From Felis catus (taxonomy: Eukaryota): a DNA stretch of 64,000 nucleotides. Shown piece after piece: positions 3,888-48,005 of this stretch. Every line of letters begins with the position of its first letter. Position 1 is the first letter of the stretch. A program made the position numbers and the translations under genes. Location: contig NC_058368.1 in NCBI RefSeq assembly GCF_018350175.1, forward strand, positions 22,818,001 through 22,882,000, given 5' to 3'. The notes under the pieces were generated by a model. It did no database searches. It was given only the letters and a program-made list of their open reading frames with translations, and had not been told where the DNA came from.

Positions 3888-5088
3888 AAGATGCTCTCTT
3901 AATGCCTGACAAATGATTTATCTAAAACTTTAAGAATGTGAATTTTTTGCTAAAGAACCTCAACCCAGAAATGATTTTACTAAACTCAGCAAATAGCCAT
4001 CATCATAAGTATAATATGGATCAATTCTCATTACCTAAGTATACATTTTCATGTGGCAGTGTGGGACTGTAAATTAAACATGCACGGTGCAGCATGTTAA
4101 GAACTTACAACATAATTTGTAGGTATCAGTACACAGATACTATAAGAACATCAAATAAAGTATGGTACAAAGTGCATGAGAGCATTTATATCATTTGCCA
4201 ATTATTTTCTACTTTATCTCTTCCTGTAGAGTTTGAGATTTTTACCATGAGTGTGCATTACTTACGTAATTAAACACCCCACACAAATGTTTTCTCAAGG
4301 GTTAATATATCTCCTTCTCCCTGTTTTTCTTGCCCATTAAGTACAACTATATGAGCTGACAATTTGGGGAGATGAGACTACATTAACTATACTTCCTAAT
4401 CTGCCTACCACTCTACAAATTAAGTCAGTTTCAAACTGCCCATGATAACATATAATAAGTCAATGGAAGCACTTCAAAGCCAGAAAGCACTTGTGGTTGG
4501 ATGTAGAAGATGATATAATGATTTGTAGTTGCACAGAACCTTTCATCTAGGAATTTAAAACAGCTTCATACTCATCTCCCTTATAGACAGCACCCTTCCA
4601 TAGTAGCCCTGACACCTGCCCCAAGTAATGTAAGGAAACTGCAGGCAGAATTAAGAATGGACTTCTAAAGACTTAATTTACAGTCATCTACATTTAATCA
4701 GTCATCTACATTTTAACAACAAAGCAAGACGAACAAGTTCACTGAGCTTATAGGACATTCAATAAATCTACAGAATAAAAATTCTTAACTGAAAGTAATC
4801 CACTTTGCTTAGCAGATTGTTACTTGCAAAAATATGAAAGTGATTTTAAACTTATTACAAAAGTTGTTCTCTGTTCACAAAAAATAGATCCCAGCAACCA
4901 GAAAGGTTGATGACTAAATTTGCAAAACCATTTAAGTAAACATTATTTATCTTTTCTACCAAATTCTTGCCATGTCACTTAATATAAATTGTCATTCATT
5001 TTAAATGAAGAAAGCTTTATATTTTTGTGTTTGGGTCAAAACAATCTCCTCTTATTCTTTGCCCCTTCCCTAAAGAGAAAACACAAAC

Positions 5089-5252
5089 CTCGATCTTGGA
5101 GTCATTTTTGTTGGTGTTGGCACACCTTCTGAAATTTTATATGGATTCTTCAGGGGTGATATATAGATGTTTCCCCCAGGAATTCGTAAAGGTGAACTAG
5201 AAAACTTGTAAGGGCTTCGAGGAATGTGAGGTATTGGTGACAAAGTCGGGGG
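5089..5252 (-). CDS. RB1: RB1 coding exon (exon 23 equivalent, C-terminal CDK site cluster), 164 bp
   Basis: Translates [54 protein letters not shown](R); acceptor ...ttttgccttag, donor gtttgt; 100-bp intron to the previous exon. Confidence 0.97.
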
Positions 5253-5313
5253 CTAAGGCAAAAACAAAAAGTAGATTATTTTTTTTAATGTTTTAATGAG
5301 ATCCTTTGTTTTA

Positions 5314-5502
<189 letters not shown>

Positions 5503-5651
5503 TTAGAAATTTATCTCTTTAGATTTTCTTTATAAATAATTCATAATATGTTTGAACAGTAAGAATCACATACTATGTAGTAAAAAATCACCTGAAAAAG
5601 CCTTCTTAGGTTTAGATTATAGCTGCTCTACCAGAAGTGAAATGTGATGCA

Positions 5652-5898
5652 TTTTTTTTTAAAGTTTGTTTATTTACTTTGAGATAGAGAGAAAGAAAGA
5701 GAAAGAGAGAAAGAGAAAGAAAAAGAAAAAGAAAAAAAAAAAAGAGTTGGGGAGGGAGGGAGGAAAAGAGAATCCTGAGCAGGTTCTGCCCTGTCAGCAC
5801 GGAGCCCAATGCGGGGCTTGAACTCATGAACTATGAGATCATGATCTGAGCCAAAACCAAGAGCTGGACACTTAATTGACTGAGCCACCCAGGCGCCC
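5652..5898 (-). mobile_element. CanSINE in RB1 intron 21
   Basis: Poly-T, GA-rich tract, ends gagccacccaggcgccc. Confidence 0.92.
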
Positions 5899-6173: not shown

Positions 6174-6296
<123 letters not shown>

Positions 6297-11118: not shown

Positions 11119-11295
<177 letters not shown>

Positions 11296-11741
11296 TCATG
11301 TTTATTATTCATTTTCAATTACAAGTGGATTTTTCAGAACATTAAATTGTTATAACCATAACACTGTTAAACAGCACCTTTTTTTCAAGTTTTTATTTAA
11401 ATTCCAGTTAGTTAACATGTAATGTTAGTTCCAGGTGTAGAATTCACTGATTCATTACTTACATTGCAACACCCAGCGCTCATCACAAGTGCCCTCCTTA
11501 ATACCCATCACCTCTTTAAGCCACTCCCTACCTGCCCTTTGGTAACCAACAGCTTGTTGTCTATAGTTAAGAGTTTGTTTCTTGGTTTGCCTCTTTTTTT
11601 CCTCTATGTGCATTTGTTTTGTTTTTTAAATTCTACAAATGAGTGAAATCATGGTACTTGTCCTCTGACCAACTTATTTCACTTAGCATAATACTCTCTA
11701 GCTCCATCCACATTGTTGCAAATGCCAAGATTTCATCCTTC

Positions 11742-12230
11742 TTTTTTGTTTTGAGAGAGAGAGGGGGGAGAGAGCATGCAGGCAGGGGAGGGCAGAGGTA
11801 GAGGTAGAGGGAGAGAGGGAGAGGGAGAGAGGGAGAGGGAGAGAGGGAGAGGGAGAGAGGGAGAGAGGGAGAGGGAGAGAGGGAGAGGGAGAGAGGGAGA
11901 GGGAGAGGGAGAGAGGGAGAGGGAGAGAGGGAGAGGGAGAGAGGGAGAGGGAGAGGGAGAGAGGGAGAGGGAGAGGGAGAGGGAGAGAGGGAGAGGGAGA
12001 GGGAGAGAGGGAGAGGGAGAGGGAGAGAGGGAGAGGGAGAGGGAGAGAGGGAGAGGGAGAGGGAGAGAGGGAGAGGGAGAGGGAGAGAGGGAGAGGGAGA
12101 GGGAGAGGGAGAGGGAGAGGGAGAGGGAGAGGGAGAGGGAGAGAGGGAGAGGGAGAGAGGGAGAGAGGGAGAGAGGGAGAGAGGGAGAGAGGGGGAGAGA
12201 GAGAGAGGGGGAGAGGGGGAGGGAGGGAGG

Positions 12231-12288
<58 letters not shown>

Positions 12289-12424
12289 GGAGTGAGGGAG
12301 AGAATCCCAAGCAGTCTCCATGCTCAGCATGGAGCCCAATGTGGGGCTTGAACCCATGAACCATAAGATCATGAGCTGAAATTAAGAGTTGGACACTTAA
12401 CCAACTGGGTCACTCAGGCACCCC
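11742..12424 (-). mobile_element. CanSINE with a hugely expanded internal CT tract
   Basis: SINE head at ~12303-12424; TSD-like ccaagatttcat on both sides (11725-11736 and 12423-12434). Confidence 0.88.
11753..12303. repeat. ~550-bp (GGGAGA/GGGAGAGA/GA)n polypurine tract
   Basis: Nearly pure G/A on the plus strand; accounts for the SPSL and RERG low-complexity ORFs. Confidence 0.97.
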
Positions 12425-14576: not shown

Positions 14577-14789
<213 letters not shown>

Positions 14790-18052: not shown

Positions 18053-18171
18053 ATATCTGCTGCAGTGTGATTACTCTGGAGAGGAAGGCTGAGAGTACAA
18101 GCAGATTCAAGGTGATCAGCTGGTCCTTCTCGGTCCTTTGCTTGTTTAATTAGATCAAATAAAGGTGAATC
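18053..18171 (-). CDS. RB1: RB1 coding exon (human exon 18 equivalent), 119 bp
   Basis: Reverse complement translates [39 protein letters not shown](M), the RB spacer region; acceptor ...tttcatatag, donor gtaagt; length matches human exon 18 as recalled. Confidence 0.97.
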
Positions 18172-46970: not shown

Positions 46971-48005
46971 ATGGTAAGCAATAACAGCTCCCAATGTTAC
47001 TATGATGACTCCTTTAAGTACACTTTGTATGGCTGCATGTTTAGTATGGTATTTGTGCTTGGGTTAATATCTAACTGTGTTGCCATATACATTTTCATCT
47101 GCACCCTCAAAGTGCGAAATGAAACTACAACATACATGATTAACTTGGCAATGTCAGACTTGCTTTTCGTTTTTACTTTACCCTTCAGGATTTTTTACTT
47201 TGCAACCCAGAATTGGCCGTTTGGAGATCAACTCTGTAAAATTTCAGTGATGCTATTCTATACCAACATGTATGGAAGCATTCTGTTCTTAACCTGTATT
47301 AGTGTCGATCGGTTTCTGGCAATCGTCTACCCATTTAAGTCAAAGACTCTAAGAACCAAACGAAATGCAAAAATCGTGTGTATTGCTGTGTGGCTAACTG
47401 TGATAGGAGGAAGTGCACCAGCAGTTTTTTTTCAGTCTACCCACTCTCAGGGTAACAATGCCTCAGAAGCCTGCTTTGAAAAATTTCCAGAAGCCACATG
47501 GAAAACGTATCTTTCAAGGATTGTAATTTTCATCGAAATAGTAGGATTTTTTATTCCTCTAATTTTAAATGTAACTTGTTCTAGTATGGTGCTAAGAACT
47601 TTAAATAAACCTGTTACATTAAGTAGAAGCAAAATAAACAAAACTAAAGTTTTAAAAATGATTTTTGTACATTTGGTCATATTCTGCTTCTGTTTCGTGC
47701 CTTACAACATCAATCTTATTTTATATTCTCTTATGAGAACACAAACATTTGTTAATTGCTCAGCAGTGACAGCAGTAAGGACTATGTACCCAATCACTCT
47801 CTGCATTGCTGTTTCAAACTGTTGCTTTGACCCTATAGTTTACTACTTCACATCGGACACGATTCAGAATTCAATAAAAATGAAAAACTGGTCTACTAGG
47901 AGAAGTGACTTTAGATTCTCTGAAGTTCACAGCACAGAGAACTTTATTCAACATAACCTACAGACCTTAAAAAGTAAGATATTTGACCATGAATCTACAA
48001 TATAA
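46971..48005 (+). CDS. LPAR6: Lysophosphatidic acid receptor 6 (P2Y5), single-exon class A GPCR nested antisense in RB1 intron 17
   Basis: 344-aa ORF with seven hydrophobic segments, NLAMSD, DRF, CFVPY and DPIVY motifs; sequence recognisable as LPAR6; location in RB1 intron 17 on the opposite strand is the known arrangement. Confidence 0.98.

Follow-up and report, generated by a model that had tools for sequence, protein, structure and literature searches.

Asparagine in place of human RB Ser811 in a feline RB1 gene is most likely an old laurasiatherian substitution

The DNA analyzed here (the window, a stretch of 64,000 nucleotides of Felis catus contig NC_058368.1) carries exons 18 to 23 of a single-copy RB1 gene, in which the codon corresponding to human RB Ser811 encodes asparagine. 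We put at roughly 93% the probability that this Asn811 is the fixed laurasiatherian state, in an RB protein that keeps six C-terminal CDK sites, Ser807 among them.

Results

RB1 exons 18 to 23 in the window

The exons were placed by tblastn of the annotated RB1 protein of the jaguarundi (Herpailurus yagouaroundi, XP_040304342.1, hereafter P0006) on the window, and the splice sites were then read from the sequence. The presence of RB1 exon 23, as proposed in the first-pass annotation, was confirmed by the match of its peptide to the Pfam family Rb_C (E 3e-20, 73 bits, cut-off 21) and by its identity with felid RB1. The exons and the residues discussed below are as follows.

18053..18171, minus strand: RB1 exon 18, 119 bases (tblastn and splice sites)
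14579..14721, minus strand: RB1 exon 19, 143 bases, with the S608 and S612 equivalents (47/47 residues equal to P0006)
11128..11273, minus strand: RB1 exon 20, 146 bases (tblastn and splice sites; RB_B, E 1.1e-12)
6192..6296, minus strand: RB1 exon 21, 105 bases (tblastn and splice sites; RB_B, E 3.6e-7)
5353..5466, minus strand: RB1 exon 22, 114 bases, ending in ...QYASTR (tblastn and splice sites)
5253..5352, minus strand: intron 22, 100 bases, GT...AG (splice sites read)
5089..5252, minus strand: RB1 exon 23, 164 bases, comprising 54 codons and the AG of the next Arg codon (splice sites read)
5157..5159, minus strand: Ser at the human Ser807 position, TCA, in a full S-P-L-K consensus (read and alignment)
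5148..5150, minus strand: Lys at the human Lys810 position, AAG (read; in human RB a site of methylation and ubiquitination, PMC9161509)
5145..5147, minus strand: Asn at the human Ser811 position, AAT (minus-strand read; numbering via P0066 and P0006)
5121..5123, minus strand: Val at the human Leu819 position (comparison with RB1 proteins)

Within the exon bounds, every aligned residue of exons 19 to 23, and of exon 18 from DSPLF on, equals that of P0006, and the felid RB1 showed no difference from the window in the exons compared. The start of exon 18 was inferred from the point at which identity with P0006 begins, just past a TAG serving as the acceptor. Exon 23 is bounded by an AG acceptor at 5254-5253 and a GT donor at 5088-5087. 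Both exon 20 and exon 21 matched RB_B above the cut-off, while the match of exon 22 was weak (E 0.0079, 16.6 bits) and lay below the 26.9-bit cut-off. The exon sizes fit those of human RB1 exons 18 to 23, and it is from this fit alone that exon 23 takes its number.

The 401-base stretch at 5000..5400 occurs once in its own assembly (2.43 Gb, 71 contigs), and the named proteins among the best 120 of the 460 matches to the exon 23 peptide are all called 'retinoblastoma-associated protein', RB1 or 'hypothetical'. These match names, the identity with felid RB1 and the single genomic place point to the RB1 orthologue and not to p107/p130. The neighbourhood is also that expected of RB1, since an intact ORF of 344 residues (46971..48005, plus strand), which matched solved chains of lysophosphatidic acid receptor 6 with an E value of 1.8e-185, sits within the large RB1 intron upstream of exon 18 and on the opposite strand, presumably the same nested arrangement of LPAR6 as at the human locus. 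Two overlapping long 'ORFs' composed of SL/SP repeats were found between exons 19 and 20 (11633..12372, minus strand); as a gene they were rejected, the region being an intronic pyrimidine/purine-rich simple repeat of about 0.6 kb.

The codon at position 811

Human numbering was taken from P0066, a primate RB1 protein of 928 residues that differs from P0065, a named human isoform, in a single residue, apart from a gap of 35 residues. S/T-P motifs are present in P0066 at residues 5, 230, 249, 252, 356, 373, 567, 608, 612, 780, 788, 795, 807, 811, 821 and 826. Residue 811 of P0066 is Ser, and that of the window is Asn, encoded by an AAT codon at 5147..5145 of the minus strand, as established from the minus-strand read and the stop-to-stop frames. 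The bases TCA CCC CTG AAG AAT CCA TAT AAA quoted in the first-pass annotation are present on that strand and translate into SPLKNPYK, within a stop-to-stop frame extending from 5252 to 5073, so that both the codon and its reading as Asn were verified.

With regard to the CDK consensus, the acceptor at 811 is neither Ser nor Thr, whereas Pro at +1 and Lys/Arg at +3 are both in place (N-P-Y-K); the former site still has its frame and lacks the acceptor alone. At 807, the window has the complete S/T-P-x-K/R consensus (S-P-L-K), which makes it a predicted CDK site on sequence. The equivalents of Tyr805, Lys810, Pro812 and Lys814 are all kept in exon 23, the neighbouring Lys810 as AAG at 5150..5148, and S/T-P motifs occur at all six positions for which retention had been claimed in the initial reading, namely 780, 788, 795, 807, 821 and 826.

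Human RB (P0066) and mouse Rb (Mus caroli, P0041) are encoded by the same gene with the same exon structure. In comparison with human RB, the window has the same 15 other S/T-P sites wherever these are covered, and it keeps Tyr805, Ser807, Lys810, Thr821 and Thr826, but differs in having Asn for Ser811, Ser for Pro793 (KFSSSPL versus KFPSSPL) and Val for Leu819. The S807/S811 doublet of human and mouse is thereby reduced to Ser807.

Distribution of residue 811

The exon 23 peptide was searched against a large protein collection from which only longer proteins were considered, and 460 of 485 candidates matched with E<=0.001. We examined 194 proteins, that is the best 120 of these 460 matches and 74 members of ten clusters, with at most 15 members listed per cluster. 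Four truncated proteins (P0125, P0140, P0178 and P0179) contain no exon 23, and a further 21 proteins tallied without a name (11 with Asn, 10 with Ser) do not enter the species counts; among these 21, five are Terrapene by label, a genus counted anyway through P0089. The comparison was made at the protein level, and species were assigned to orders by general knowledge.

The exon 23 peptide of P0006 is identical to that of the window, and the RB1 proteins of all five other felids sampled (Panthera onca, Panthera uncia, Leopardus geoffroyi, Acinonyx jubatus and Herpailurus) read SPLKNPYK and EGVPTPTK, just as the window does. An error of assembly or sequencing, or a variant private to the sequenced individual, with AGT (Ser) as the true or common reading at base 5146, is very unlikely because these five species agree, with Asn and an identical exon 23 peptide, and Canis, Vulpes and Ursus carry Asn too. 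The base call at 5146 itself rests on this agreement with annotated proteins of other species. Furthermore, 14 sequencing runs contained 0.98-0.99 of 121 sampled words from 4600..5700, a figure that speaks to word content and not to base 5146; four of the runs may, according to their flag, have gone into the assembly, and the other ten come from 5 studies and carry two organism labels.

Outside the felids, Asn was found in every carnivoran sampled (Canis lupus, Vulpes lagopus and Ursus maritimus), in 18/18 bats, 4/4 species of Equus, 2/2 of Manis, all 17 artiodactyls and cetaceans (13 terrestrial artiodactyls and 4 cetaceans), and, among eulipotyphlans, in the shrews Sorex and Suncus and the mole Talpa. 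Altogether, 52 of the 53 named laurasiatherian species among the proteins examined have Asn; the sole species with Ser is the hedgehog Erinaceus europaeus, where three RefSeq isoforms show it, as does one unnamed transcript-derived protein from the same cluster. Ser is the residue of all 45 other named mammal species, comprising 16 primates, 16 rodents, Tupaia, Cynocephalus, 4 afrotheres, Tamandua, 5 marsupials and the echidna. The 31 named non-mammals divide into 27 with Ser, two frogs with Thr and two caecilians with Asn.

This distribution makes it hardly credible that Asn811 is a felid- or carnivore-specific substitution setting these animals apart from other mammals. Such an impression arises from a contrast with human and mouse alone, whereas bats, equids, pangolins, artiodactyls, cetaceans, shrews and the mole carry the same residue, and what marks carnivores in exon 23 is Val819. 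The first-pass annotation had asked whether the change is individual, felid-wide or more widely shared; it is the last, the residue being found in related families and orders across 52 of 53 laurasiatherian species, essentially a whole superorder. The claim of novelty falls with this, as the annotation itself had stated for the case of Asn being common in mammals. Asn811 is the ordinary inherited state, and annotated proteins of the closest relatives in public databases already show this residue.

Val at the human Leu819 position (EGVPTPTK) was found in the window and in 8/8 carnivoran species sampled; among the other mammalian proteins examined, it occurred in one isoform of Macaca nemestrina only. 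In protein comparison, the carnivore-typical residue of exon 23 is thus Val819 and not Asn811.

Several further lineage-specific changes were observed around this site. In the cetaceans Tursiops, Delphinapterus, Globicephala and Balaena (P0046, P0056, P0133 and P0168), Met replaces Thr821 (LPMP...), so that both the 811 and the 821 acceptors are missing in 4/4 cetaceans sampled; T-P at 821 is also absent in three afrotheres (Tenrec, Echinops and Elephantulus). Bos taurus, Bos javanicus and an unnamed protein (P0036, P0037, P0126 and P0170) read SPLNNPYK, in which the Lys810 equivalent is Asn and the +3 Lys of the Ser807 consensus is removed as well, while Bos mutus, sheep and deer keep the Lys810 equivalent. 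Talpa occidentalis (P0165) has N-S at 811-812 and hence no Pro812, and Tamandua tetradactyla (P0150) has S-S, in which Ser is kept and the proline-directed consensus has been lost independently. The predicted RB1 proteins of Rousettus aegyptiacus (P0099-P0101) are devoid of YKIS directly after the N-P at 811-812, either through a true in-frame deletion or through a fault of annotation. Among amphibian RB1 proteins (P0106, P0115, P0079 and P0111), two caecilians have Asn, and Ascaphus and Bombina have Thr, which is still phosphorylatable.

Other CDK sites

Thirty-seven full-length RB1 proteins (20 from Laurasiatheria, 9 from Euarchontoglires and 8 others) were aligned. S/T-P at 811 was present in 1/20, 9/9 and 8/8 of these, respectively. 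By contrast with 811, sites 230, 252, 356, 373, 567, 612, 780, 788, 795, 807 and 826 were kept in 20/20 laurasiatherian proteins, and sites 249, 608 and 821 in 19/20; site T5 was variable everywhere. By this alignment, 811 is the one well-conserved predicted CDK site that Laurasiatheria as a whole have lost. No new S/T-P column common to more than 5 of the 20 laurasiatherian proteins was found among the 37, and a clade-wide compensating site therefore appears to be absent.

The claim that a canonical RB inactivation site has been removed is accordingly correct in one part, since the acceptor is gone, and wrong in the other, in that it placed the loss 'in this animal'; the loss is superorder-wide (52/53 species).

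Origin of Asn811

Comparison of the proteins indicates that Asn811 most likely derives from one old substitution in the laurasiatherian stem. Ser would have been replaced by Asn once and then kept, with Ser regained in the line leading to the hedgehog. The change would have required a single G-to-A transition from an ancestral AGT to AAT, where AGT is the ancestral Ser codon that we assume from the human gene.

Alternatively, Ser might be ancestral within Laurasiatheria and retained in the hedgehog, with Asn acquired separately in Scrotifera, shrews and moles. In favour of this are the hedgehog Ser, seen in the three RefSeq isoforms and the transcript-derived protein already mentioned, and the fact that Asn has arisen independently at least once elsewhere, in caecilians: Geotrypetes seraphini and Microcaecilia unicolor read SPLKNPYK, with the same Asn as the window, in a distant lineage, and this appears to be a separate event because the other sampled amphibians have Ser (Mixophyes) or Thr (Ascaphus and Bombina). 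On a eulipotyphlan tree with moles outside hedgehogs plus shrews, however, on which the single-origin reading depends, separate acquisition takes three gains as opposed to one gain and one reversal; with AGT as the Ser codon, a single transition suffices for Ser to Asn and for Asn to Ser alike. A single origin followed by reversal in the hedgehog is favoured because it needs two steps instead of three, and we regard repeated acquisition as quite improbable.

Under the most likely history, that of one stem substitution, the loss at 811 would have been tolerated since the full S-P-L-K consensus at Ser807 persists. We infer that position 811 is still constrained and not drifting, because, the hedgehog excepted, Asn does not vary within the clade.

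Discussion

In the literature on human and mouse RB, the S807/S811 pair is described as phosphorylated by CDK3, CDK4, CDK5 and p38gamma, as a possible priming site for further phosphorylation and, together with S788/S795, as contributing to the loss of the RbC-E2F/DP contact (PMC9161509). The same review attributes to AMPK the phosphorylation of mouse S804, which corresponds to human S811, and states that methylation, demethylation and ubiquitination of Lys810 modulate S807/S811 phosphorylation. According to PMC7293209 and PMC13353681, Sanidas et al. (2019) found that RB mono-phosphorylated at S811 favours association with NuRD, and that mono-phosphorylation at S811 or T826 causes oxidative-phosphorylation genes to be expressed at higher levels. 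PMC4669794 reports that Pin1 binding is virtually lost in the S807A/S811A double mutant; in these sources, most of the cited experiments mutate S807 and S811 together and not separately.

The RB1 of the window has no acceptor hydroxyl at 811 and, on chemical grounds, residue 811 can carry no phosphate because it is Asn. The C-terminal region of laurasiatherian RB would accordingly contain six CDK acceptor sites and not seven, and the human and mouse S807/S811 doublet would be represented by a single site, Ser807. Hyperphosphorylated laurasiatherian RB would then bear one phosphate fewer, and one mono-phosphorylated isoform would not exist. Neither the S811 mono-phosphorylated form linked to NuRD and oxidative-phosphorylation genes nor AMPK phosphorylation of the mouse S804 equivalent could arise on this residue, while priming, Pin1 binding and exit from G0 could in principle run through pSer807 alone. 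Altered C-terminal phospho-regulation and altered reactivity of pS807/811 antibodies, as suggested in the first-pass annotation, are plausible, and would, if true, concern a whole superorder and not one cat.

As for structure, no solved chain of at least 20 residues was found that covers the 807-811 part of the exon 23 peptide, which is compatible with 807-811 lying in a flexible linker. Residues 1-17 of the exon 23 query alone matched solved RB chains (E about 0.005).

A further question is whether Asn was fixed and maintained because loss of 811 phosphorylation changed RB regulation usefully, for example by freeing RB of AMPK control or of the programme that ties S811 mono-phosphorylation to NuRD and oxidative phosphorylation. 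Such adaptive rewiring would agree with the invariance of Asn in 52/53 species of a very old clade, which points to a constrained position, with the fact that 811 alone among the conserved CDK sites was lost clade-wide, and with the site-specific S811 roles described for human and mouse RB in PMC7293209, PMC13353681 and PMC9161509. However, all of this evidence on Asn itself is protein comparison, and a constraint for a small polar residue before Pro would produce the same pattern. Moreover, caecilians (Asn), Tamandua (Ser-Ser) and Talpa (Asn-Ser) show independent loss or weakening of the site, a sign that it is dispensable, and the hedgehog has reverted to Ser without obvious correlates. We therefore consider adaptive rewiring unlikely, and a stem substitution that was tolerated and then kept remains our preferred reading.

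We also consider it possible, though rather unlikely, that roughly half of placental mammals do without the S811-specific biology of RB or perform it through other residues, as the protein comparison would allow. If so, all major companion and farm animals would be affected, and the signal of 'pS807/811' antibodies in laurasiatherians would report pSer807 only. Our word searches of the literature, limited to the text that they reached, returned no paper remarking on Asn811 in mammals other than primates and rodents, although searches of this kind cannot prove absence, and within the same scope no report was found on what pS807/811 antibodies detect in laurasiatherians. Studies of how RB is phosphorylated in dogs, cats, cattle, pigs, horses and bats should not take the human S807/S811 doublet for granted, and the same caution applies to CDK4/6-inhibitor biomarker studies that make use of pS807/811 antibodies.

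For the window itself, Asn811 is an ordinary residue of minor importance, shared by all of the cat's relatives, the hedgehog excepted, and already present in public proteins. Its wider meaning, if the reading given here is true, would lie mainly in comparative oncology and in the chance to see the RB 'phosphorylation code' put to the test by nature: a large and healthy clade living without the S811 acceptor would set bounds on how essential S811-specific functions can be, and Asn/Ser swaps would offer a clean test of those functions.
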